Assembly: GCA_000002445.1 (NCBI GenBank)
Contig: CH464491.1
Location: 3,712,001 to 3,776,000 of the forward strand
Direction of reading: 5' to 3'
Length of the DNA stretch: 64,000 nt
DNA from: Trypanosoma brucei
Lineage: Eukaryota
Positions within the stretch are counted from its first letter, which is position 1. Every line of letters starts with the position of its first letter. This document shows positions 2,503 to 53,581 of the stretch, in pieces. The notes beneath the pieces are model-generated. The model searched no databases, was not told where the DNA came from, and worked only from the letters and a program-made list of their open reading frames with translations. Made by a program: the position numbers and the translations under genes.

Positions 2503-4284
2503 GGGGAAAGTGTGCGTGTGAGTAAAAACCTGCCCTTCGTCCTTTCGACTCATGTTTGCGTATATAAATATATATATATATATTTATTTTTATATGTGTG
2601 TGTGTTTGCGACATTTGATGGTGGAAACTATTTTGACACGAAACGCTTTTCTTTTCTTGACTGTATATTTACGTGATCGTACACCACTTCTTGTGCTTTT
2701 GTTTTTGTTTTTCTTGTTATTTATGATTCGAACAGTATTTGGGAAAGTTTGTTGGTTTGTTTGTTTTTTGTCGATATTGCTTTTTGGGAGTATTTTTGTT
2801 TTTTTTTTGTAGAAGATGATACTAATGCTAAACACAAGGGATATTTGTAAATACAGCAAAGATATGAAGTCGAAACAATAACAAAGAAAAAAAGCTTTAA
2901 AAAAAAATCACTCTACCAGCGTGAGCATCTTACAGAGTTTGGAGCAGTCGTAAATTTCCTCTTTTATTTGGTTGATCAAATCATTTGTCCTTTTTTTTTC
3001 TTTGTATCACTTCTATTTTTTCTTTATTTCTCGTTGAAAGAGGACAGAGACGAGAGGAATTCGCTGCTCTAATGATGTTGGGTGACTCAAAGGAATTGTG
3101 ATTTCTTTTTTTTTTTCCTTTTTTCCTTTTTTTTTCTTCGTTACCTTATTTGAATGGGAAAGGGAGGGAAAGGATGAGCGTTTGAAATGAAGGAGAGTTG
3201 AGTCTGACTCCCCCATTCCTTCAAAATATTATTTAAAAAAAATGACAAATAATATTTAATAACTAATATACGATAAAGTGAAGAAAAAAATGGGGATAAT
3301 TTTTTTTTTTATTTAAAACAAAGTCAAGAAAGAAAAAAAAGAAGGAAAGAAAATATCGACAATAGTGAACACGCTGCCTGTCGATTTTTTTTTTCTTTCC
3401 TTCTTTTTTTTCTTTTCTTTCATTTTCCTATTTTCTTGTGTGGGATTTGTGACGGTGGGGACATCACCCCAACTATGGGAACCGTGGGATATAATTTGGG
3501 AAGTGAAATAAATAAATAAATGGAAAAACTCATCGCACTGTTGTGGATAAAAACAATACCAATGGAGTGAATGAGTAAATTGAAAAAAAAATCAGATTTA
3601 AATAAATAAACAAAGGAATGGGGGAAAATGAAATTAAAATAAGGGAAAAAACAAAAATCATCCCGACAGCGCTTGAGTGGGTGAAGACGAAGTTAAAGCA
3701 TAATTAATGGGAGAAGGGAAGAGGGAAAAAATCAATGGCGTACGGAATATATAAATAAATTTAATATGTAAGTTGTAAGATGATATATAAATAAACAAAT
3801 ATATATATATATTAACACATACAAAAAAGGGCAAACGTAAAGTGAGGGGTATGTGTATGTTTTGTATACGTGGAGTGCGGTAGCTTTGGAATGAACGAGA
3901 GGGAAAAGGAAAACAAGAAGCGAGTCGGTGGGTGTACACAACAACAATATAAAAGAGAAATAATAATAATAATAATAATAATATATATATTTGTATAAAT
4001 ATGATAGAAAGTGTGATGAAAGGGAAGTGGTGCTGGTGCTTATTCGTTTAGGTTTTTCTTTTCTCTAAAAGTTTTCCACTTGTTTGGTTTTGTAAACTCA
4101 ATGATGCACATAATTGAAGTGTGACAACAGTTTTGAGCCGGTTATCTTTTTTTTTTGTTTTGCACGCTAGTGGAGGAAAAGAAATTGAGGACAAGAATAT
4201 GAAAGTTTCACACAAATACACAAATAAATAGTTAAAGCGCGCACATTTACAAAAAAATATGAGAGAAGGAAGCCCTGTCCTCAA

Positions 4285-4545
4285 TTGTTATCTTTATTAT
4301 TATTGTTATTATTATTTTTTTCCCCCTTAGCGTTGCTTTCTCATGTCTTCTCTTTTTTTCTTTTTTACTCTTTTTACTTTTTTTTACTTTTTTTTTTAAA
4401 AAAATATTTTACTTCTTCATTGTATTTGCCTCTGTTCGTTCACACCTTTCTTTTACTTTTTTTTTTCTCCCCGTTCGTGTTTTTTTTTTTGACTGCTTAC
4501 GCTTTCCTTTGTTTTTGTTTTTTGTTATATTATTTTGGTTGAACG
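4285..4545 (+). repeat. ~260-nt pyrimidine-rich (T>>C) tract with embedded (TTA)n/(TTG)n
   Basis: Direct reading: tctttattattattgttattattatttttttccccc...ttttgttttttgttatattattttgg, almost free of purines. Confidence 0.8.
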
Positions 4546-5260
4546 TATAACTTCTTCGCGTTGTCGTATACCATATGACCAGAAGAAAGGAGAATTAAAG
4601 GAAAAAAGAAAAAGAAAAAGAAAACAAAAATAAAAGAAAAGAAAGGACGCTTTCATTTTTTTTTTCCCCCTTTCCTTTTCTTTTGCAATCCCTTTTTTCT
4701 TTTCTTTTCTCTTTCCTTTTTTTTCTTTGCGTGTGTTTTTTTTTTTTTACATTTCCCTCACATTTTAAGAGATGAGAGAAGGAACGAGTTAGTGATGTAA
4801 TATGAAAAAAGAGGAAAAAAGAAAACAATATTGACGAGAGGATATATATATATATATGCTTTGAATGAAAAAAAAAATAAAGTAATGATTAAAAAATCAC
4901 TGATTTTATTATTACTATTATTATTACTGTTATTATTATTATTACTCATATCAGCTTACTCATAGTTGTCGTTGACTGTGTTTTGTTTCTTATTATTTTT
5001 ATTTCCGTGCTTCTTTTCGGTTTATTTCCGTTTGGTACACTTTTGGACCAATGGAAGAAAAAAAAAAAAAGAAAATAAATGAAACGAAAAGAGAGAATTT
5101 CTCACTCTTTGTTTATTTTACTTTCCTTACTTTTTCTCTTTTTCTTTTTTTTTCTCAAATTTTTTTGTTAAAATTCTTTTCTTTCTGTCGTTGTGTTCCC
5201 ATGAAACCGTGTTGGTAACACTGACAAAGAAAGAAAGGGGATTATTTTATATTTACCAGG

Positions 5261-5525
5261 GAGAAAAAGAAAAAAAAAAGGTAAATAACAATGAAGCAAC
5301 AGATGAAAACAGAAGCAACAAAATATAGATAAAAAGAAGGAAAAAAGAAAAAGAAAAAAAGGAGAAGAAAAAAAAAAGAGAAAGAACTTTTAGGACAAAA
5401 CATGAAACAAAGCAAAAAAAAAAGAAAAAATGAAAAAAAAAAGAACAAACACACACTAAAAACACGAAAGAAAGGAAAAGGAAAAGGAAAAGAAAAAGAA
5501 AAAATGAAAAAAAAAAGAAAAACAC
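5261..5525 (+). repeat. ~265-nt near-pure polypurine (A>>G) tract
   Basis: Direct reading: gagaaaaagaaaaaaaaaag...gaaaggaaaaggaaaaggaaaagaaaaag...aaaaaaaaagaaaaac, with only scattered C/T. Confidence 0.85.
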
Positions 5526-6082
5526 GTTTGTATTTAATAATGGGGAAATGGAGTCCCTTTCTTTTCATTTCATTTCTTTCCTTCTTTATTCTCTCTCACA
5601 TAGATGGACAGTACGAGATATGCATTCACAGCAAACCAAAAAAATAAATAAATAAATAAAACAACCACTAATGATAATAATAACAGCGACAGCTAAATAT
5701 ATTAGTTTATGTTGCTTTTTTTCTTTTTTCTTTTTTCTTTTTTGTTTTTAACACTTTCACTCACTCTTTCACTTTTCCTCTTGTGTTATATATTTTTACA
5801 TTTTTATATTTTGAAATTTTTTTTTTTAAAAAATGCGCGGGCCCCCCCTTTTATTAAAGTTCCACCCCCCATTTCCCTTTCCACTGGCCTTCTTTTTTTT
5901 TTTTTATCTTTTTTTTTTAAAGGAGGAAAAAAAAGCAACAACAGCAACGACAAAAAGAGAGAAGTGAAGGAATGAAAATGAAAATGAAATAAATGGAGGT
6001 GCGTGTGTTGGGGGTTTGGGGGAGGGAAAATGAAATTTCAGTTTTTGGGCCCGTGCTTCACCTCAAACAAAAATAAAAAATA

Positions 6083-43564: not shown

Positions 43565-46500
43565 ATGGAAGATATTCTCGACTTCAGCAAGCCCGTCGAT
43601 GTGCAGCGTTTCGACCAGGTAGTGCAATACCTCTCAACAGGCTCACCACAAGAGATCGTGAGGGCGCAGGAGGTTCTTACCGCATTCAAGGAGAGACCCG
43701 ACTCCTTTTTACGCGTAGGAGACCTTCTCACCAAATCGGTGAACCTCACGACACGTTTTTTTGCACTTCAGGTTCTGGAGGACGCGATTCTACACCGATG
43801 GAACACATTCACTGCGGAACAGTGTCAGGAAATTCGTAACTTTGTTGTTAACATGATTGTAGGTGAATGCGTGAGCTTCAATCAAATTCGTAGTAGGAGG
43901 GCTCTTCTTATGAAGATGAATAGTGCGCTTGTGTCAATAGCGAAGCGTGAGTGGCCCGTTCGTTGGCCGACCTTCATAAAGGACGTGTGCAGTAGTGCTG
44001 GGCCAGATGAACCTCTTGTAGAAAACAACCTGAACATTCTCCGCATGGTGGGCGAGGAGATATTTGAATTTAGCGAGAAAACTTTAACGACTCGATGGTT
44101 GAAACGAAAGAAGGAGGCACTGCAAAGCGACTTTCAGGCAATTCTTCAATTGTGTCTTTCGATTCTATCCACTAGTGACGAGGCGCTTCTCAAAACCAAT
44201 CTGGAGTGCCTGGAGAAATATCTTTCCTGGGTAGAACCGGCGTCCGTGTTTAACGAGGAATTACTGAAGTATCTTGCGGGACTAATCGCACGGAAGTCTG
44301 CCGTATCGCGCTGCGCGGTGCGTTGTCTTACAGTTGCGTGCTCCGTGGAGACAGATCACGGCTCAGTTGGGGACGCGCAAGCGCAGGTGATGGTTCGTGT
44401 GTTTCGCACAATCCTCGATAATATTATGAACTTACTTCCCACGAATCACTCTTCTGTTGAAGCGCGTATCGTCCAGTTTTCCAACATGGAAGGGAGTGTG
44501 GATGCAGGCTTTGTTGGCGATCTCAATCTTTTGTTGGTTGCGTTTTTGAAGCACTATACGAGAAATATTATGTACGACGATCTCTTGTTGATATCTGCCA
44601 ACCAATTGATCGTGGGAATGAGTCATATTAACGACAAGGAGCTATTCAAATCCTGTGTTGACTACTGGTGGTGGCTTGGTGAAAAGATGGTGCGGTCCGC
44701 ATCACCTACACCGCTACACCGGAAGCTGGCACTTGTACTCAGCAATGTTCGCTTTACTCTCATCAAGAAAATGGCAAGACCGGAGGAAGTCATTATTGTA
44801 GTCGAAGACGGTGAGGTGCGCAGGGTGCACATGAAGGATGTGGAGGAACTACAACTCTACAAATTAATGCGGGAGACGCTTGTTTTTTTAACATACCTCG
44901 ATCCTCAAGATATGCAGGCGATTATGACTAAAATCGTTATGAAGCTTGAAGACCTTAGCGAATGGAGTTGGCACAACTGCAACACATTATCATGGGCAGT
45001 CGGGGCGATATCTGTGGCCCTGACTGAGGAACAAGAATCTTCACTATTTGTAGTTATTGTACGTGGCCTGCTAGATCTTTGTAGCAAGCTACAAGGAAAG
45101 GAAAACCGTGCCGTTGTTGCGAGTGGTATCATGTTTGTTGTTGGGCAGTACCCCCGTTTCCTGCGTGCTCATCAGCCCTTTTTCCGCGCAGTGGTGAAGA
45201 AGGTAATTGAATTCATGTGCGACTTATTCCCTGGTGTGCAGGAAATGGCTGTGGATACTCTTTTGAAGGTGGCCTCGCAGGTACCAGATCAGTTTGTTTG
45301 TGTCAAGAACAATGGGATTTCCCTCGCTGAGGAAACGGCGAAGCGGTGGACTGAAATAACGTCTTTGTTAAAACCCCAACATATGCACACATGTTTTGTT
45401 GCAGCTGGTTGGATGGTGAAGGGAGAGAAGCCAGAGCGGCAGCCGAGTCTGTTAGGCATGTTTCTCCAAGATGCGAACGACAGTTTTAGGATTATTGTGG
45501 AGCGAGCAGCCTCTAAAGGTCCGGCCTTTGGGGAAGACTTTTCTGGTATGGGGGAGTTAATACACATTTTACGTGTCTTTAGCAGCATTGCGTCATCTTG
45601 TGGAACATCGTTTGTGAATGAGATGGGGATTATAATTTACGACCTTCAAGGACTCTATCGTACATTCTTCTCCGCCCAAACTGCCCTAGTTGCGGACCAT
45701 GGAACAGATGCCATGGAGAGGCAGGAGGCACGGTATTTAAGGCTAGCGAAGCGGGAGATCTTGCGAATTTTCGAGTGCTTTGTTGACAATACGGAAGAAT
45801 GTGACTTTGTGGCAACAAATTGCATGCCGAGTATTCTGACAACTGTTCTTGAGGACTACCGTGACTCGCTTCCCATAGTGAAGGAGGCAGGAGCCCTAGC
45901 TCTTGTGACGGCGTGTGTCAACAAGTTGGGCACGCGGTTGGCCGGGGATTGTGCTGCCATTTTGGACCACACGTTTGATACAACCATATCGATGATCTGC
46001 GCAAACGCTGAGGATTTTCCCGAGTTTCGCGTGAATCTTTTCAAACTGCTACACGCACTGAATACTCGCTGTTTTTCCAATTTCTTGAGCTACGCCTCCA
46101 CTAAGGGGGACGTTATAAACGGTATGCTGTGGGTAATCAAACATACAGATTTTGCTATAATGGAGACGGGGTTGAAGACTTTAGATGCTTTCCTTGAGAA
46201 TGTCTCCCGGTCAGAGTTACTTCAACCCTTCTACGATGCCTTTATGCAGCAAATATTTGTCGAGGTTTTGGTGTCCGCTATGGATTCGCTTCATGCCGCA
46301 GGATTCGAACTGCATTGTAGCATCCTCATCAAACTCTTCACTGTGTCTAGCATGTTTCCCGTAGATTTGCCAAAGCTCGGCCGAAACGATATTGAGAGCT
46401 TTCTTTGTGAGAACCTTTCAACCATTGCCACACTCACACCTGTCCTTATTAAGCAGTTTATTGCTGGAGCGTATGAAAAGTATGGAGACCCTGTCGAATT

Positions 46501-46666
46501 CAGGCGGAGCTTTGCAGATTTCCTCATAGAAATGCAGGTTTGGGGTGCTGAGGAGGAAAACAGACTGCAACAAGAGGAAGAACAACGCAGACGGGAGGAA
46601 GATATTCCGGGATTTGCTGCCCTTTCCGTGAAGGGGCCGCCACCAACACCTTCTTTTTATCCCTGA
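43565..46666 (+). CDS. XPO1: Exportin-1 (CRM1) nuclear export receptor
   Basis: 1033 aa. Collinear with CRM1: WPTFIKDVCS, MARPEEVIIVVEDGEVRRVHMKD, LYKLMRETLVFLTYLD, EWSWHNCNTLSWAVGAIS, LLDLCSKLQGKENRAVVASGIMFVVGQYPRFLRAH. This last segment contains the Cys equivalent to the leptomycin-B-reactive Cys of human CRM1. Confidence 0.95.
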   Translation: MEDILDFSKPVDVQRFDQVVQYLSTGSPQEIVRAQEVLTAFKERPDSFLRVGDLLTKSVNLTTRFFALQVLEDAILHRWNTFTAEQCQEIRNFVVNMIVGECVSFNQIRSRRALLMKMNSALVSIAKREWPVRWPTFIKDVCSSAGPDEPLVENNLNILRMVGEEIFEFSEKTLTTRWLKRKKEALQSDFQAILQLCLSILSTSDEALLKTNLECLEKYLSWVEPASVFNEELLKYLAGLIARKSAVSRCAVRCLTVACSVETDHGSVGDAQAQVMVRVFRTILDNIMNLLPTNHSSVEARIVQFSNMEGSVDAGFVGDLNLLLVAFLKHYTRNIMYDDLLLISANQLIVGMSHINDKELFKSCVDYWWWLGEKMVRSASPTPLHRKLALVLSNVRFTLIKKMARPEEVIIVVEDGEVRRVHMKDVEELQLYKLMRETLVFLTYLDPQDMQAIMTKIVMKLEDLSEWSWHNCNTLSWAVGAISVALTEEQESSLFVVIVRGLLDLCSKLQGKENRAVVASGIMFVVGQYPRFLRAHQPFFRAVVKKVIEFMCDLFPGVQEMAVDTLLKVASQVPDQFVCVKNNGISLAEETAKRWTEITSLLKPQHMHTCFVAAGWMVKGEKPERQPSLLGMFLQDANDSFRIIVERAASKGPAFGEDFSGMGELIHILRVFSSIASSCGTSFVNEMGIIIYDLQGLYRTFFSAQTALVADHGTDAMERQEARYLRLAKREILRIFECFVDNTEECDFVATNCMPSILTTVLEDYRDSLPIVKEAGALALVTACVNKLGTRLAGDCAAILDHTFDTTISMICANAEDFPEFRVNLFKLLHALNTRCFSNFLSYASTKGDVINGMLWVIKHTDFAIMETGLKTLDAFLENVSRSELLQPFYDAFMQQIFVEVLVSAMDSLHAAGFELHCSILIKLFTVSSMFPVDLPKLGRNDIESFLCENLSTIATLTPVLIKQFIAGAYEKYGDPVEFRRSFADFLIEMQVWGAEEENRLQQEEEQRRREEDIPGFAALSVKGPPPTPSFYP

Positions 46667-47078
46667 GGCACAAGGGGTAGGTAGGTGGAGTGTGTTATAA
46701 TTCTAAGGGACTGGGTTTATGTGGTGAAGAGGTCCACATAAAATGGTTAGGGTTCGCGATCTTTCCGCCGTTTGGTTGAACAGAGTGGGGTGGTAAAGTT
46801 TTTTAAAAAAGGAAGAGATGGAAATAAATCCCCACAGCCCAGTTTCCGATCCTTGTTAGGGGAGACAAGACATTGTTTGGATAACTAAACGCCTACCCGC
46901 GAGGCGAGGGTGCTTAAGTCTTATAAGTGTAGCGCCTACTTAAGAAGGTGCATATATGTGCGGGCCCGAACGCGTGAAACGGGAAGAGGAAACATTGTTT
47001 CGTGGAAAAAAGGGGAGGGAGGACATTGGTGTGCCGTTCCCTCGTTGTGAGTGGGCGATACTTGTCTGTCTCTGTATC

Positions 47079-47510: not shown

Positions 47511-48551
47511 ATGACAACCGCCCTACGAGATGAGTGTTCCCCCTTACAAATGTATTCCGAACTTAACCCTCCAGTGGCAATTATGGCGGCTGTACCAGCA
47601 GCGGATATGCAACCTGCGGAAACTGATAACAAACCACGGCAGAAGTCACCGTCATCACACATTCTCGCTTCACAACTAGCATCTGCCGTCAGCACTACTA
47701 TGTTTTACCCAATGGATACGCTGCGCATTCGGTACATGTCACAAGACGGCACCATTCAGCGACAGCACAATGGACAGACGTACCGGTCTATTTACAGAGC
47801 TGTGGGTGTGATATGGAAGGAGGAGGGATTGCGTGCTCTCTTTCGTGGATGTCACGTTGCGGTATTGGGGGCTGTTGTAGCGTGGGGCGTGTACATGTTC
47901 GTATACCGCAAATTATGCGAGGTTTATAACGTTTCGTCTTTTGCAAGTAGAACTGGGATGTCTGTTGTGGCCAGCGTTACGTCGGCGCTGTTGACGACGC
48001 CTATTTGGCTCCTAAAAACTCGGATGCAGATTGAGTGTAGGGCTATGGGTACCTGTGGGAGCTACAGCGGCTTCTTCAAGGGTTTCCACCACATGCTCGT
48101 AACAACAGGCGTTCGTTCGCTTTGGCGTGGAGCGTCTGCGCAGCTCCTACTCGTTTTGCCCAATTCGCTCGGCTTTCCTATTTACGACTCGCTAAAGGAC
48201 TGCATAAACCAAAACATAATAGGGATTTCCGCAGAATCCTGTAGTTGGGTGCATGGACGCGACCTAACCGTAATAGAGGCGTGCCTTTGCTCAGTCGTCG
48301 CGAAAGTTTTTGTGGTGACCCTCTCTCAGCCATTCACGATGCTGAAGGTCCGACTGCAGGATCAACGCTGGAATCAAGGGGAGGTAAGATACATGACGAT
48401 TAAACAGTCGATTCCGCTCATCATAAGACGAGAGGGTGTGTACGGCTTCACACGAGGGTTAGCTTCATCACTGTTATACTCGGTTCCGCGTGGTGTTGCA
48501 TATTACGTTCTCTACGAGAAGTCTCTGCAGTTCTTCTCCCGCCGCGTCTGA
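47511..48551 (+). CDS. Mitochondrial carrier family (SLC25) protein, paralogue A; MFT/Flx1/Ndt-like subfamily with a P-x-W signature in repeat 2
   Basis: The ORF track start is GTG 47493; the first ATG is 47511. It has three carrier repeats: PMDTLRIRY (Px[DE]xx[KR]), PIWLLKTRMQ (PxWxxK) and PFTMLKVRLQ. The N-terminal third is nearly nucleotide-identical to the downstream paralogue. Confidence 0.85.
   Translation: MTTALRDECSPLQMYSELNPPVAIMAAVPAADMQPAETDNKPRQKSPSSHILASQLASAVSTTMFYPMDTLRIRYMSQDGTIQRQHNGQTYRSIYRAVGVIWKEEGLRALFRGCHVAVLGAVVAWGVYMFVYRKLCEVYNVSSFASRTGMSVVASVTSALLTTPIWLLKTRMQIECRAMGTCGSYSGFFKGFHHMLVTTGVRSLWRGASAQLLLVLPNSLGFPIYDSLKDCINQNIIGISAESCSWVHGRDLTVIEACLCSVVAKVFVVTLSQPFTMLKVRLQDQRWNQGEVRYMTIKQSIPLIIRREGVYGFTRGLASSLLYSVPRGVAYYVLYEKSLQFFSRRV
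47613..47905 (+). repeat. 293-bp near-identical segment (1 mismatch) shared with 49334..49626; a gene-conversion patch between tandem carrier paralogues
   Basis: Direct comparison of cctgcggaaactgataacaaaccacgg...gtacatgttcgtata in both copies. Flanking sequence on both sides diverges. Confidence 0.9.
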
Positions 48552-49267
48552 TTGGCATCCCCTTACATCATTGCCACTGGCTAATGGTCACTCCCTTAGG
48601 TATGTGCCGCTACATCGTCAAGACGCTTTGGTGCTTGTGTAGAAATTGTTACTCCCTACACAGCAACTTCATTAAACTAAGAGAGGCATTAATATTGCTC
48701 ACTTTCGCCTGAGAAGTTGTTTATCATTATTAACTTACTTGTCACTTTTTTCAGTTATCGTGCCCTCTGTTTTCATCTGTACAGTTTTATCAGTGCAGAA
48801 TTCGTTGCATATTTTTCTGTATTTTCCTGTTATCTGAAGTTACTCCCAAGTTGAAGGGAAATGACTTGTGTACTTCCCCTTCCAGCAGAGGAGGATTGCA
48901 TTGGATTGATGGGGGGGAAGGAAGGAATTAAGAGGGCATGTTTGAAGGGGGGAAATTAAAACGTTAAACATGCCATGAGTTGAGTTTGTAGTAGTCCTGC
49001 TGTACGGTACGGAGAGGTGGGGGTGAGGGGATGTGCTACGGTGAACCGCAAGGCAAAAACTAGGTGAGGGAAGGGACCCCTACACTTGATCTTCAGCATC
49101 TTTCCTCTTGCTTTGAAATACGTTGTTTCTGTCGGAAGTTCTGCGGTCTTCACCTCTCTCATCAATGTTCACTTCTATATGCGCTTTTCACTAAGTGTAG
49201 GTGAAAGCCCGGAGGTTAATTTTTTTCCCCGCGGATATTACCCTGCTTGTATAGTTAATCACTTCAG

Positions 49268-50287
49268 ATGGCACAAAGTACTGCTCGTCACGTAATGAAC
49301 ACGCCGCAGTCCCAACAGGGTCAGAACTTAACACCTGCGGAAACTGATAACAAACCACGGCAGAAGTCACCGTCATCACACATTCTCGCTTCACAACTAG
49401 CATCTGCCGTCAGCACTACTATGTTTTACCCAATGGATACGCTGCGCATTCGGTACATGTCACAAGACGGCACCATTCAGCGACAGCACAATGGGCAGAC
49501 GTACCGGTCTATTTACAGAGCTGTGGGTGTGATATGGAAGGAGGAGGGATTGCGTGCTCTCTTTCGTGGATGTCACGTTGCGGTATTGGGGGCTGTTGTA
49601 GCGTGGGGCGTGTACATGTTCGTATATCACGCGCTGTGCGACCTGTACATCCCAACAAGTAACAAAAGAGCGGGGGACGATTTCTTGTTTCGCACTGTTC
49701 TTTCCAGTATTGCCAGTTGCAGTTGCGCAGTCGTGGGAAACCCTATTTGGCTCCTAAAAACTCGGATGCAGATCGAGGAAATCGCCTCACGTGAGGCGGC
49801 AGTGGCTGGAGCTTCTATCTTTCGAAACAGCAAAAATTACACGTCATTCTTTGGTGGGTTAAGATACGCTATTCAAACTGACGGTGTTTTGTCGCTGTGG
49901 CGTGGTGTCTCCGCACAGGTCCTGCTAGGTTTACCGAACGCACTTAACTTTCCCGCTTATGAGGCACTGAAGTCGTTCTGGTTGCAGCGCACTGACCGAG
50001 AAACCCTTTACAGTTATGAGGCGTGCATTTGTTCAACAGCCAGCAAAACTGCGGTTTCGATCATCGGGTATCCCCTACACGTTGTTAAGACAAGAATGCA
50101 AGATCAGAGAAGTCGCCGAGGTGATTTACAATATGTTTCGTTTCTGCAGTCAGCCTGGCTCGTGCTGCAGACCCATGGATTTGCTGGTTTGTACCGTGGC
50201 ATGGTGCCGTCCTTGCTGCACTCAGTCCCACGTCTCGCGCTCACATTCGTTCTGTACGAGAAGTTAATGCAGCAGAATTTTTTTTAG
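49268..50287 (+). CDS. Mitochondrial carrier family (SLC25) protein, paralogue B (tandem duplicate of 47511..48551)
   Basis: ATG at 49268. The motifs PMDTLRIRY, PIWLLKTRMQ and PLHVVKTRMQ are present. The protein is identical to paralogue A over ~97 aa (PAETDNKPRQ...VYMFVY) but has a different N-terminus and a diverged C-terminal two-thirds. Confidence 0.85.
   Translation: MAQSTARHVMNTPQSQQGQNLTPAETDNKPRQKSPSSHILASQLASAVSTTMFYPMDTLRIRYMSQDGTIQRQHNGQTYRSIYRAVGVIWKEEGLRALFRGCHVAVLGAVVAWGVYMFVYHALCDLYIPTSNKRAGDDFLFRTVLSSIASCSCAVVGNPIWLLKTRMQIEEIASREAAVAGASIFRNSKNYTSFFGGLRYAIQTDGVLSLWRGVSAQVLLGLPNALNFPAYEALKSFWLQRTDRETLYSYEACICSTASKTAVSIIGYPLHVVKTRMQDQRSRRGDLQYVSFLQSAWLVLQTHGFAGLYRGMVPSLLHSVPRLALTFVLYEKLMQQNFF
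49334..49626 (+). repeat. Second copy of the 293-bp conversion patch (see 47613..47905)
   Basis: Same as above; offset 1721 bp. Confidence 0.9.
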
Positions 50288-50770
50288 ATTGGGGCATATT
50301 ATTTAATGCATACGAGGTTAAAATGTTTTGATCCTTTTCTTTTTGCACATTCGTGAACATTCATTTCACTTGTCGGAGGGTATTTTGAGCGCGCTGAAGG
50401 TGCATCGTGTGCTAACATGTAGGGGCATGTAAGCGCGGGCGTGTGCCTGCGTTGTAATGCAATGGTGACTTACCATTTGTGGTGTTGCATGTGTTTTTAT
50501 TGTAAGGTTCTGTCTAATTTGTGAAGGAAATATTGGTCTTTAAGTCAGAGATTTTCATTCGTTGGTTTGTCACACCAATTTGGTGATACCTCATCCAGGC
50601 ACAAGTTTCAGTGCCCTCATTCGATTTTTTTTTTTAACACTTATTCAGCCTTGGTGAATAGCAACTTGTAAGTAGCAGTGACGGGGGGAAGACAACGAAA
50701 ATCAGAAAAGAAAAAAAAACACAGTAAAGAAGCGAACGACGTCTTTAACTTTACTATAGCTGTAGCGGTT

Positions 50771-53581
50771 ATGTCCAAGGAGGCTCCACATCGCTTTCTA
50801 CTGGAGACGCGGTCTCAGCAGCTCCATCGTCTTGAAGCTATACGACGTCGTCGTGAATTGTTGGAGCGTGAATCGCAAAAACCTGTTCAGATGCGATTCG
50901 GCATTGGGGGAAGGGGGCCTTCATGGTCTCCACCACCACGGATTCAATCGCCTGTGGTGACAACGGTGAACGGGGTCCAGAAAAGGCCCGCTGAAACGCG
51001 AAAGGGCTTCTCATCTTGTTCCCGATGTCCACGCAGCTGCGAGCCACGGAAGGCTACCCATGTTCCACTTGTCCGCTCACGATCGGCACCTCACATGAGG
51101 CTTTCTCAATGCTTTGCAACTCGTTCCACTTCAAACCGCCGTACTTCATTAGTGCCGCCGTTCGGATCGCTCTGCAATTTGCAACAAAAGAAAGATACGC
51201 CTCCGATCAAGAGGATGTTGAAGCGACAACGTTCGCGTACAGTGTCTACTTCACCGTCAACTTCACTTACATCAAGATTCCGCAGGCGTACACCTCTGGC
51301 GAGCGCCCGCAACAAGGAGAAGATGACACCATGGAACAACTTTCCTAATACATCGAGATCGGCGCAAATATTAACTCCGCCATTGGGTCCAAAACATGGG
51401 AAAAGAGTTTCCGCCCCGCGCGAAAGGTCACCATCTCCCCTACCGTCCTCTACCCAAACCACTGCGATAAACGGGACGACACACGACGAACAACGGCAGC
51501 CTGCAGTGACGCTGGGTTCAGAAACAGTTTCATCCTCGCCTACCAACCGGTTTCCTCTTCCGAGGTCTCGGAGTGTCTCCAACGCCGAACCTAAGGAAAT
51601 GGTGAATCAGCATGTGGGATCATCCCCATTGAGGTGTGTCTCGGACGAAAATATGGAAACGGTCACCGCATTTCGCGTAAGCGAGTTCCCCACACCGCGC
51701 ACCCCTAAACTTCGTGAGAGTCTGGCCGTTTCGCTGTCCCCAGCAACTTCTCAGGGCGTGTCCATTAAGCAAGAGTTGGTGGCGGAGACTCGCATCAGCA
51801 CTGACAGTTCTCCTCCGGTCGTGAAAGAGGAGGCAACCTGCAACCCCTGTGATGGATTGTTACTGCAGTCGTCTACATGTCAGTCGGTTTTTGTGGGCAG
51901 TTCTTCCGTTCTTACCGGTGGTTTATGTGAAGTTGATATTCATCTCAATGAGGAATCAGATGCGCCCCCACCCTGTGAAATTGAAACCAGTAGGGACAAT
52001 AAGGAGACCAGGGTGAGTGCCGCGGCTTCTCCTGCTGGTGAAAGTGATATCGTTTCAATGTCTCCATCGTCACCAGGATGCAAAGCTGCAGCTGCTTGCA
52101 GACCCTCCGCCATGACGTCGTATACGTTCGATTGCAGCCCCACCACAAGTGAATTCGACGGAACCGAAATTGAGAGGAATTCTCACCGACAGCTCATGTT
52201 TGATATGGAAGAAAGCCAGAGCTCTACTGTGGCAGTTGAGGATAAAAAGAATGCGGATGGTCAGCTGCACCAACACGTTAGTGGTGAAGACGAAGAGTTG
52301 GAAAACGACAGTGACCTAAATAATCGGGAAGAAGAGTTGTGTACTCCAAGGGATAACCGCGGCGAGTGGCTACCTGATACTTTGACGCACGGACTCGATG
52401 CCTCTGCAGAGTCGGAGAAACCACATGAATGTGTGAATGCCCTCTGCACACCCGTGGATCAAATACTGTATTCATCACCGTTGTGTGAAATGGTGTCGCC
52501 ACGGCCGCAAACACCCTTGTTGCAAGTGAGAATGGAGCATAAGCTCACCATGCTCAACACTGCAGAGCGGGAAGATGAGAATTCACGCGGGAGTTTACTG
52601 TTGGTTACCGGTGAAAGTCCCATTCCTCACACACCTGTTCTACAGGAACCGCACACACCGCCTCCAACAGAGGGAGTCCCGCTATTTATTTCTAATACAT
52701 CGAATCTCCCTCGTCCTGTGACACTAATATCGGCACTTCAGTCTCCAATGAGTGCCCGTCGATTGGTCCGTCCAGTGGCTGAATCTCCTATCGGAGAATG
52801 TGCAGTGTGGAATGGGGGAAAGTGGTCTCCCCCGATGCGCACAGACTTAAATAAGGAGCCAACGGTCCAACCGCGGGAAGTAGTTGATCTAGAGCGACGA
52901 TACCTGGAGGCAGGCTCAGGACTACAAGGGGAATCGGTACCTTCGAGTTCCTCATCGCCCTGCTCCGGCTCTCGCTTTAAAAACAAAAAACTGCCTACTG
53001 ATTTGCTAATGGTTTCACATATACTTGAGGCAAGCGAAGAGGCTCACCAGCCAATAACGTCTGAGACATCGTGTTGTACACCGTCACATTCTCAGGGCAA
53101 TGATCAGGCGTCAGGACAGCTGTCAGGAAGTTCATCCACTGCACAGACCGCGGCTTCCCAACCGCGGAAGCATTATTACGAAAAAACTCACTGGGAGCAA
53201 CACCAACTGGGGACCACAGCAAGCAACATTGCGAAGGAACATCGTCGGAGTGAGAAGGTAGTAGGTAAAGTTGAGCTATGCGCCTCAAAGGTTTCAGAGG
53301 CTGTTGCTGCCTCCCTGAATTTCACAGCAGGTGAGAAAAGGGAAAGGGAAGCCAGTTCTGATACTGACCGGACTTCACAATCCCCACACATTTTGAAGGC
53401 GAATGCAGCTCCCAGCCGAGACTTACGACAAGCAGGGGCCTCTCCTCAAGGGTCATCACAATCCTCCACAGGTGACGATCCAATTGGAAGCACTACGCAA
53501 ACGAAACTTGTGTCAGAGAAACGCCACGCAAAGAAACACAGACGCCGGCGCGTTCGTCGCTTCAACAAGGGAGGAAAGTAG
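50771..53581 (+). CDS. Large S/P/T-rich, probably intrinsically disordered protein with basic N- and C-terminal tails; no recognisable domain
   Basis: The ORF track start is GTG 50678; the first ATG is 50771 (MSKEAPHRF...). It carries dozens of SP/TP dipeptides, and the C-terminus reads KRHAKKHRRRRVRRFNKGGK (NLS-like). Confidence 0.65.
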   Translation: MSKEAPHRFLLETRSQQLHRLEAIRRRRELLERESQKPVQMRFGIGGRGPSWSPPPRIQSPVVTTVNGVQKRPAETRKGFSSCSRCPRSCEPRKATHVPLVRSRSAPHMRLSQCFATRSTSNRRTSLVPPFGSLCNLQQKKDTPPIKRMLKRQRSRTVSTSPSTSLTSRFRRRTPLASARNKEKMTPWNNFPNTSRSAQILTPPLGPKHGKRVSAPRERSPSPLPSSTQTTAINGTTHDEQRQPAVTLGSETVSSSPTNRFPLPRSRSVSNAEPKEMVNQHVGSSPLRCVSDENMETVTAFRVSEFPTPRTPKLRESLAVSLSPATSQGVSIKQELVAETRISTDSSPPVVKEEATCNPCDGLLLQSSTCQSVFVGSSSVLTGGLCEVDIHLNEESDAPPPCEIETSRDNKETRVSAAASPAGESDIVSMSPSSPGCKAAAACRPSAMTSYTFDCSPTTSEFDGTEIERNSHRQLMFDMEESQSSTVAVEDKKNADGQLHQHVSGEDEELENDSDLNNREEELCTPRDNRGEWLPDTLTHGLDASAESEKPHECVNALCTPVDQILYSSPLCEMVSPRPQTPLLQVRMEHKLTMLNTAEREDENSRGSLLLVTGESPIPHTPVLQEPHTPPPTEGVPLFISNTSNLPRPVTLISALQSPMSARRLVRPVAESPIGECAVWNGGKWSPPMRTDLNKEPTVQPREVVDLERRYLEAGSGLQGESVPSSSSSPCSGSRFKNKKLPTDLLMVSHILEASEEAHQPITSETSCCTPSHSQGNDQASGQLSGSSSTAQTAASQPRKHYYEKTHWEQHQLGTTASNIAKEHRRSEKVVGKVELCASKVSEAVAASLNFTAGEKREREASSDTDRTSQSPHILKANAAPSRDLRQAGASPQGSSQSSTGDDPIGSTTQTKLVSEKRHAKKHRRRRVRRFNKGGK

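Follow-up and report, generated by a model that had tools for sequence, protein, structure and literature searches.

Evidence for recurrent gene conversion restricted to the first carrier repeat of an ancient tandem pair of mitochondrial carrier genes in Trypanosoma

Sharply bounded conversion tracts are familiar from duplicated vertebrate genes such as the human G-gamma/A-gamma globin, RHD/RHCE and red/green opsin genes, and in Trypanosoma brucei the PGKB/PGKC genes are a classical example of gene conversion. Partial gene conversion in the tandem arrays of T. brucei is well documented (Jackson 2007, PMC1855330), and the table of arrays in that study includes PGK as array 1 and, as array 118, a mitochondrial carrier protein array of 2 copies on chromosome 11 (1564064-1566840). 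The 2777-bp span of array 118 is exactly positions 47511-50287 of the 64-kb stretch of T. brucei chromosome 11 analysed here (the window, to whose positions all coordinates refer unless another locus is named). The array consists of two adjacent genes of the SLC25 mitochondrial carrier family, designated gene A and gene B, which share a nearly identical first carrier repeat within otherwise strongly diverged sequences. Here, we present evidence that this mosaic is very probably the product of recurrent, domain-restricted gene conversion, without crossover, between ancient tandem paralogues.

The carrier pair resembles the arrays of Jackson 2007 in that tandem copies of T. brucei are chimaeric, with conspecific copies clustering while flanking or divergent parts keep their orthology, and in that divergence was expected to let parts of a gene "escape conversion" (PMC1855330). 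However, only 47 arrays of at least four copies were analysed for conversion in that study, and the carrier pair is absent from its conversion tables (PMC1855330). In contrast to those arrays, the carrier pair is not a dosage array but consists of two anciently diverged, functionally distinct paralogues, in which one repeat is homogenised genus-wide. Like PGKB/PGKC, it comprises tandem paralogues of different function or location that lie in a polycistronic unit and have partly homogenised coding regions; in PGKB/PGKC, however, homogenisation covers most of the coding region and leaves the differences at the ends, whereas the homogenised share of the carrier genes is only about 28%. The vertebrate duplicates have in common with the carrier pair a sharply bounded identical segment, recurrence across lineages, and edges attributable to loss of homology or to selection, but their edges often fall at introns or simple repeats, whereas the carrier genes are intronless and their 3' edge lies at an in-frame insertion. 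In protein terms, A and B share the three-repeat architecture of the SLC25A32/Flx1-type folate/flavin adenine dinucleotide (FAD) carriers, and T. brucei MCP2 (TbMCP2), which gene B appears to be, branches with the human folate carrier SLC25A32 (PMC5114424). Our literature search, which did not cover the carrier inventory of Colasante et al. 2009, found no paper describing conversion in the carrier pair. We regard the pair as a clear-cut further case of a familiar process rather than a new kind of biology.

The two genes and the homogenised tract that they share are as follows.

47511..48551, + strand: gene A, open reading frame (ORF) of an SLC25 mitochondrial carrier paralogue, 346 amino acids, three Mito_carr repeats, E 3.6e-50
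49268..50287, + strand: gene B, ORF of an SLC25 mitochondrial carrier paralogue, 339 amino acids, three Mito_carr repeats, E 8.8e-52
47612..47905, + strand: conversion tract, gene A copy (A residues 35-132), 294 nucleotides (nt), 99.66% identity to 49333-49626
49333..49626, + strand: conversion tract, gene B copy (B residues 23-120)
47774 A / 49495 G: sole mismatch within the tract, synonymous (GGA/GGG)

The tract was established by direct reading, a repeat search, blastn and a codon alignment, all of which were in agreement. It comprises a short pre-helix segment, helix 1 (H1), the matrix loop and helix 2 (H2), that is, the first carrier repeat (Pfam repeat 1 covers residues 44-139 of A). The 3' edge is abrupt, with five of the seven bases right after 47905 differing between the copies, and upstream of the tract the N-terminal tails of A and B are not alignable. 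Outside the tracts, A and B are 44-50% identical in nucleotide sequence, with saturated synonymous differences; the proportion of synonymous differences (pS) between the T. brucei genes is 0-0.05 inside the tract versus approximately 0.75 outside. By blastn and repeat search, no shared sequence between the A and B units was detected in the intergenic region and flanks, and no third patch copy or ectopic donor was detected within the 64-kb window.

To this alignment we applied a Sawyer-type test, in which the alignment columns were shuffled 20,000 times and the longest identical run served as the statistic. The longest run was 162 nt in the window strain and 225 and 296 nt in two other strains, compared with a permutation maximum of 39; with third codon positions only, an identical run of 54 was observed versus a maximum of 26 in the permutations. 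Since none of the 20,000 permutations reached the observed run, chance is excluded. An earlier note, made from the sequence alone, had described a 293-bp patch with one differing base, flanked by unrelated N-termini and diverged C-terminal two-thirds. Our analysis confirms this description, with 294 nt starting at 47612/49333, unalignable tails, 44-50% identity and saturated synonymous sites, and the nucleotide alignment with its GENECONV-like test shows that divergence is not uniform along the genes. The same note had argued from the unshared flanks and intergenic sequence that the pair is not a recent whole-gene duplication, a conclusion on which blastn and the synteny and A/B clades described below agree.

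We then compared the window with the loci of T. b. gambiense (DAL972), GCA_003543875.1 (a third T. brucei-group assembly), T. vivax, T. theileri, T. melophagium, T. grayi, T. rangeli, three T. cruzi assemblies, T. conorhini (B only), Phytomonas EM1 and L. major. Alignment of A against B inside each genome by blastn gave the following tracts, and no A-B tract was detected by this search in Phytomonas or L. major.

T. brucei (three assemblies): tract of 294-296 nt, 99.7-100% identity
T. vivax: tract of 288 nt, 99% identity
T. theileri: tract of 240 nt, 95.4% identity
T. melophagium: tract of 231 nt, 96.5% identity
T. rangeli: tract of 188 nt, 98.9% identity
T. cruzi: tract of 179 nt, 98.9-99.4% identity
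T. grayi: matched stretch of 194 nt, 78% identity

T. brucei, T. vivax, T. theileri, T. melophagium, T. rangeli and T. cruzi have A-B pS values of 0-0.085 within the core of 57 codons common to all tracts, compared with 0.64-0.76 for T. grayi, Phytomonas and L. major; beyond the tract, A-B pS is 0.69-0.80 in every species. Between species, pS in the core ranges from 0.37 to 1.07 overall (0.7-1.07 for deeper pairs) and is comparable to that of the remaining gene, as seen for T. theileri-T. melophagium (core 0.37-0.47 versus rest 0.36-0.39) and T. cruzi-T. rangeli (core 0.44-0.49 versus rest 0.57-0.58). Because the same core codons diverge freely between species, homogenisation postdates each species split. 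The permutation test was significant at all sites and at third positions (0/20,000) in the same six species, including all three T. brucei assemblies, and yielded no significant run in T. grayi, Phytomonas or L. major. A neighbour-joining (NJ) tree of the core joins A with B by species, with bootstrap values of 100 for T. brucei, 100 for T. congolense, 99 for T. vivax, 99 for T. rangeli, 97 for T. cruzi and 95 for T. conorhini. Core and rest trees are therefore incongruent, the former showing species-wise A+B pairs and the latter separate A and B clades.

At the protein level, a survey covering 22 species pairs gave the same partition.

Eight Trypanosoma species: core protein identity 93-100%, rest 42-49%
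T. grayi: core protein identity 75%, rest 45%
13 non-Trypanosoma trypanosomatid pairs: core protein identity 55-64%, rest 40-46%

No homogenisation was apparent in this survey among the 13 non-Trypanosoma trypanosomatid pairs. T. grayi is nested inside the genus Trypanosoma in the rest tree, and its proportion of nonsynonymous differences (pN) between A and B in the core is 0.12, versus 0.29 in the outgroups. Since its core values are intermediate, these results suggest that T. grayi is a lineage that was formerly homogenised and then escaped. Collectively, there are at least six DNA-supported independent homogenisations, or eight with the protein-only cases, and the pair displays tract-specific concerted evolution, independent in each lineage, with ancient orthology outside the tract.

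Three of the loci compared show irregularities of annotation or assembly. T. vivax A is annotated from an internal Met (266 amino acids; locus positions 3373-3490), and a 1-nt gap relative to B inside the tract breaks the upstream frame, although the H1 segment is still encoded in another frame; the break is either an assembly indel or a true frameshift. In T. cruzi GCA_003177105.1, A is annotated as 71 amino acids only (4399-4614), compared with 329 in the two other assemblies, and blastn shows a 1-nt gap within the tract, probably a long-read indel error. In T. conorhini, the sequence upstream of B runs for only 139 nt to the end of its contig, and A occupies a separate 17.8-kb contig, an apparent break between the paralogues of the kind expected if an identical patch confuses short-read assembly.

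Variation among T. brucei strains was examined in the window strain, T. b. gambiense DAL972 and GCA_003543875.1. Four patch sites vary among the three assemblies, and two of the four do so in both copies: at column 169, G is present in A and B of two strains and A in A and B of the third, and at column 158 each gene shows both alleles (T, C, C in gene A; T, T, C in gene B). The remaining two variants are found solely in gene A of the window strain; one is the mismatch at 47774, where the other two T. brucei-group assemblies have G in both copies (codon column 136), and the other shifts the 3' edge. Within the patch, A and B differ by 0-1 per 296 nt, which does not exceed the divergence between strains. 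These observations, with shared variants at two sites in three assemblies, suggest that conversion may still be active in T. brucei. The proposal of the earlier note that the first carrier repeat undergoes gene conversion is thus supported by comparison across both species and strains, with the refinement that conversion was not a single recent T. brucei event but has been recurrent and lineage-independent across Trypanosoma.

The gene pair itself is far older than its homogenised repeat. Wherever both genes share a contig, the gene order is CRM1 - A - B, followed farther downstream, contig permitting, by a hypothetical (MAP103-like) gene and then, in Trypanosoma loci, by a pentatricopeptide repeat (PPR) gene; given this conserved synteny, the pair is orthologous and old. 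In an NJ tree built from the repeat-2 motif to the C-terminus (199 columns), the A clade (bootstrap 84) and the B clade (bootstrap 78) each mirror species relationships, and in this C-terminal part pN is lower between orthologues than between paralogues. The ratio pN/pS outside the tract is approximately 0.2 for the close orthologues of T. theileri-T. melophagium and T. cruzi-T. rangeli, indicating that both genes are maintained under purifying selection. The A/B duplication is older than the Trypanosoma-Phytomonas-Leishmania split. A recent duplication with birth-and-death turnover was also considered and was rejected by synteny and by the A and B clades. The earlier note had further described the remainder of the genes as diverged and free to diverge; the former is correct, but the divergence is ancient and precedes the trypanosomatid radiation, and the sequences are conserved among orthologues.

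Comparison of the tract edges in a common alignment revealed that the 3' end of every tract lies within approximately 8 codons of a B-specific insertion following H2. This insertion between H2 and H3 is present in all B orthologues and absent from A (49627-49741 in the window; alignment columns 190-222), and its size is approximately 10 residues in Trypanosoma and up to approximately 45 in Leishmania and Phytomonas. It is unusually long for a normally short carrier linker. Among T. brucei strains, the 3' edge moves by 2-3 nt. The 5' edges fall into three classes, lying before H1 in T. brucei, T. congolense and T. vivax, at YPFD in the T. theileri clade, and at RFMSQDG in the T. cruzi clade. 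Thus, where the earlier note had raised the prospect of shifted boundaries in other strains or species, the 3' edge is nearly fixed and the 5' edges are lineage-specific. As for direction, the H1 part of the tract in T. brucei and T. congolense carries A-type residues (SQLASA, DTLRIR), and the H2 part was not polarisable from diagnostic residues, at which outgroup A and B states overlap.

In T. theileri (3541-4479 / 5001-6014) and T. melophagium (3619-4557 / 5001-5993), an 18-nt island within H2 breaks up the tract (M-M/V-S in A and V-A-A in B; alignment columns 168-173) and retains 7/18 A-B differences in both species. Its left flank of 159 nt shows 0-1 A-B differences versus 19-20 between T. 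theileri and T. melophagium, and its right flank of 45 nt shows 0 versus 3. Because A-B differences are fewer than between-species differences, both flanks of the island were homogenised after the split of the two species, which hints that some residues are shielded by selection or by short-patch mismatch repair. Carrier helix 2 carries one substrate contact point, and by motif register with the ADP/ATP carrier the island may lie at or next to substrate contact point I; a phmmer alignment to solved carrier structures placed the repeats out of register and gave no tract mapping. The earlier suggestion that the substrate-specificity regions lie outside the patch is consequently right only in part, since the homogenised module includes H2 with one contact point.

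Homologous recombination in T. brucei is strictly length-dependent, is impeded by mismatches and operates alongside short-patch mismatch repair (Barnes and McCulloch, PMC1904282), and these results fit the mechanism that we propose. A break or stalled fork in one copy would be repaired with the other copy, at a distance of 1.7 kb, as template. Strand invasion would require a long near-identical stretch, and only the already homogenised repeat-1 segment would offer one. Heteroduplex extension would then halt where mismatch density rises, leaving sharp edges, and on the 3' side it would be stopped at the B-specific insertion just after H2. As each conversion would reset divergence, the patch would be self-perpetuating, and a lineage that passed the divergence threshold would escape, T. 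grayi being the expected failure mode. The latest T. brucei events may be as young as the divergence of the strains.

Several points weigh against this reading or restrict its reach. We infer the recombination pathway, the limits that homology and mismatch repair place on the edges, and any contribution of selection. The sample of shared single-nucleotide polymorphisms is small, comprising two sites in three assemblies, and in assemblies polished with short reads, cross-mapping inside the identical patch could mimic their sharing; the third assembly may carry such artefacts. A-B synonymous distances outside the tract are saturated, so that ages are not estimable. The trees are simple NJ trees on 58 (core) and 199 (rest) columns, and T. 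congolense and T. conorhini are supported at the protein level alone. Finally, GC content at third codon positions (GC3) showed no consistent excess in the core compared with the rest (0.56 versus 0.52-0.59 in T. brucei; 0.14-0.18 versus 0.25-0.30 in T. theileri); as GC3 is not raised in the tract, there is no independent footprint of GC-biased conversion.

Three explanations that dispense with recurrent conversion fare poorly against the comparative data. A single recent conversion or segmental replacement in T. brucei only, with ordinary protein conservation accounting for the other species, would suffice for the window data alone; however, the other species have tracts of their own (179-288 nt, 95-99% nucleotide identity) and species-specific substitutions common to both copies, and the core trees pair A with B in each species, which refutes this explanation and leaves it very improbable. 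Purifying selection without recombination, directed either at the protein or at an embedded nucleic-acid element, draws some support from the high conservation of repeat 1, which exceeds that of the remaining protein even in taxa lacking conversion (55-64% versus 40-46%). Yet the synonymous sites of the same codons are identical within species and saturated or strongly diverged between species, and the amino-acid replacements are species-specific and common to both copies; this alternative is likewise refuted, and we give it almost no weight. An assembly artefact, through collapse or mis-polishing of two diverged paralogues, has to be considered because repeats of this size do disturb assemblies, as the T. 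conorhini contig break upstream of B illustrates, and because indels lie within the tract in T. vivax A and in one T. cruzi assembly. Against it, the same mosaic recurs in three T. brucei-group and three T. cruzi assemblies as well as in five other species, sequenced in different projects, and the independent protein records of T. congolense display it too, while a collapse would merge or truncate the genes rather than leave two intact ORFs with sharp in-frame boundaries. We therefore regard an artefact as barely credible; the assembly collapse that the earlier note had named as a possible pitfall is at odds with a mosaic reproduced in more than 10 assemblies and in independent protein records.

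A fourth explanation accepts conversion and adds adaptation, such that conversion supplies variation while selection keeps repeat 1 the same in both carriers, owing to a common partner or biogenesis factor or to one optimised H1-H2 module, and guards paralogue-specific residues. If this were true, conversion would be a co-evolution device for a protein domain and not a neutral by-product of homology. Its appeal lies in the persistence of the pattern in almost every Trypanosoma lineage, in the conserved 3' limit, and in the H2 island of T. theileri and T. melophagium, which kept its differences while its flanks were homogenised after the split. However, a neutral, self-perpetuating and homology-dependent process predicts equal persistence, and the indel located at the 3' edge would in any case stop heteroduplex extension. 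Furthermore, T. grayi has lost homogeneity with both genes still intact, the 13 non-Trypanosoma pairs function with cores that are only 55-64% identical, and short-patch mismatch repair could leave small unconverted islands without selection (PMC1904282). On balance we consider the adaptive version unlikely, and recurrent conversion between the paralogues, limited by homology, remains our preferred explanation.

Besides the main tract, the two genes share a second, much shorter one.

48000..48035, + strand: second short tract in gene A, encoding PIWLLKTRMQIE, the repeat-2 signature motif
49742..49777, + strand: second short tract in gene B, a 35/36-nt match to the gene A copy

Positions 48000-48031 and 49742-49773 are identical over 32 nt, and if one mismatch is allowed (48032 T / 49774 C) the match reaches 36 nt, in keeping with the 31-bp identical island reported in the earlier note. 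In this island, 9/10 degenerate codons that specify the same amino acid are identical, versus 36% in the background (P ~7e-4, uncorrected for window choice). It is probably a real conversion, with evidence weaker than that for the main tract. The A proteins of T. brucei and T. congolense have the B-type LLKT, and other A orthologues have LIKS or LIKT; the island is likely a short B-to-A conversion in the common ancestor of T. brucei and T. congolense, or the result of repeated events.

The immediate neighbourhood of the pair contains the following features.

43565-46666: exportin-1/CRM1 gene, upstream of A
48552..49267, + strand: A-B intergenic spacer, with no blastn or repeat match to the flanks of either gene
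50678-53581: MAP103 (Tb927.11.14370) ORF, downstream of B, GTG start, 967 amino acids

Both carriers have the SLC25 (Pfam PF00153) architecture of three Mito_carr repeats of approximately 100 residues per protein, far above the gathering score. The repeat-1 signature of A and B, P-M-D-T-L-R-I-R, is the canonical P-x-[DE]-x-x-[KR]-x-[KR]; the repeat-2 signature is P-I-W-L-L-K-T-R, with W replacing D/E, and the repeat-3 signatures, P-F-T-M-L-K-V-R in A and P-L-H-V-V-K-T-R in B, both lack the acidic residue. A W in repeat 2 is usual among the clade of folate, FAD, nicotinamide adenine dinucleotide (NAD) and pyrimidine-nucleotide carriers. The product of gene A is a 100% match to a T. b. brucei TREU927 protein and groups in the A clade with its syntenic orthologues; gene A, a kinetoplastid-specific sister paralogue, is presumably Tb927.11.14350. 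A T. b. gambiense protein is a 99% match to the gene B product, and because gene B lies directly upstream of MAP103 (Tb927.11.14370), we infer from gene order that it is Tb927.11.14360, that is, TbMCP2, an SLC25A32/folate-carrier-like protein. Tb927.11.14360 is named MCP2 in PMC5114424, and Myc-tagged TbMCP2 was mitochondrial in that study (PMC5114424). In the literature examined, we found no report on an inner-membrane location for the product of gene A and no folate/FAD transport assay of the A or B product. Kinetoplastid homologues of gene B bear folate-carrier names in databases, although these are names only. The A-type and B-type proteins of L. donovani are both labelled "MCP2 / mitochondrial carrier protein" at NCBI, so that the name MCP2 fails to separate the paralogues in databases.

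Other features of the locus were also observed. The A protein of T. brucei has approximately 11 extra residues at 48204-48245 (…NQNIIGISAESCS…), in the linker before helix 5; this stretch is longer than in other A orthologues and is absent from B. In the spacer, positions 48860-49075 form a purine-rich stretch rich in G runs (GGGGGGGAAGGAAGG…, GGTGGGGGTGAGGGG), and the repeat search found similar short motifs upstream of A at 47003-47031; these may be related to processing signals or reflect mere composition. MAP103 is annotated with 936 amino acids in T. b. gambiense, compared with 967 in the ORF here, and has no Pfam domain.

In summary, the carrier pair offers a natural experiment on what bounds a conversion tract and allows it to persist, with ancient duplicates of known orthology, one escaped lineage and 13 unconverted outgroup pairs. 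It also bears on work with TbMCP2, a candidate mitochondrial folate carrier and a hit in the methotrexate and raltitrexed RNA interference (RNAi) screens for antifolate resistance (PMC5114424). RNAi fragments, RNAi target sequencing (RIT-seq) reads, probes, guide RNAs, short reads and peptides from the first third of TbMCP2 also match its neighbour, gene A, and because 294 bases are near-identical, MCP2 phenotypes may reflect knock-down of both genes. Carrier phylogenies and orthology calls based on full-length sequences are likewise distorted by the mosaic.

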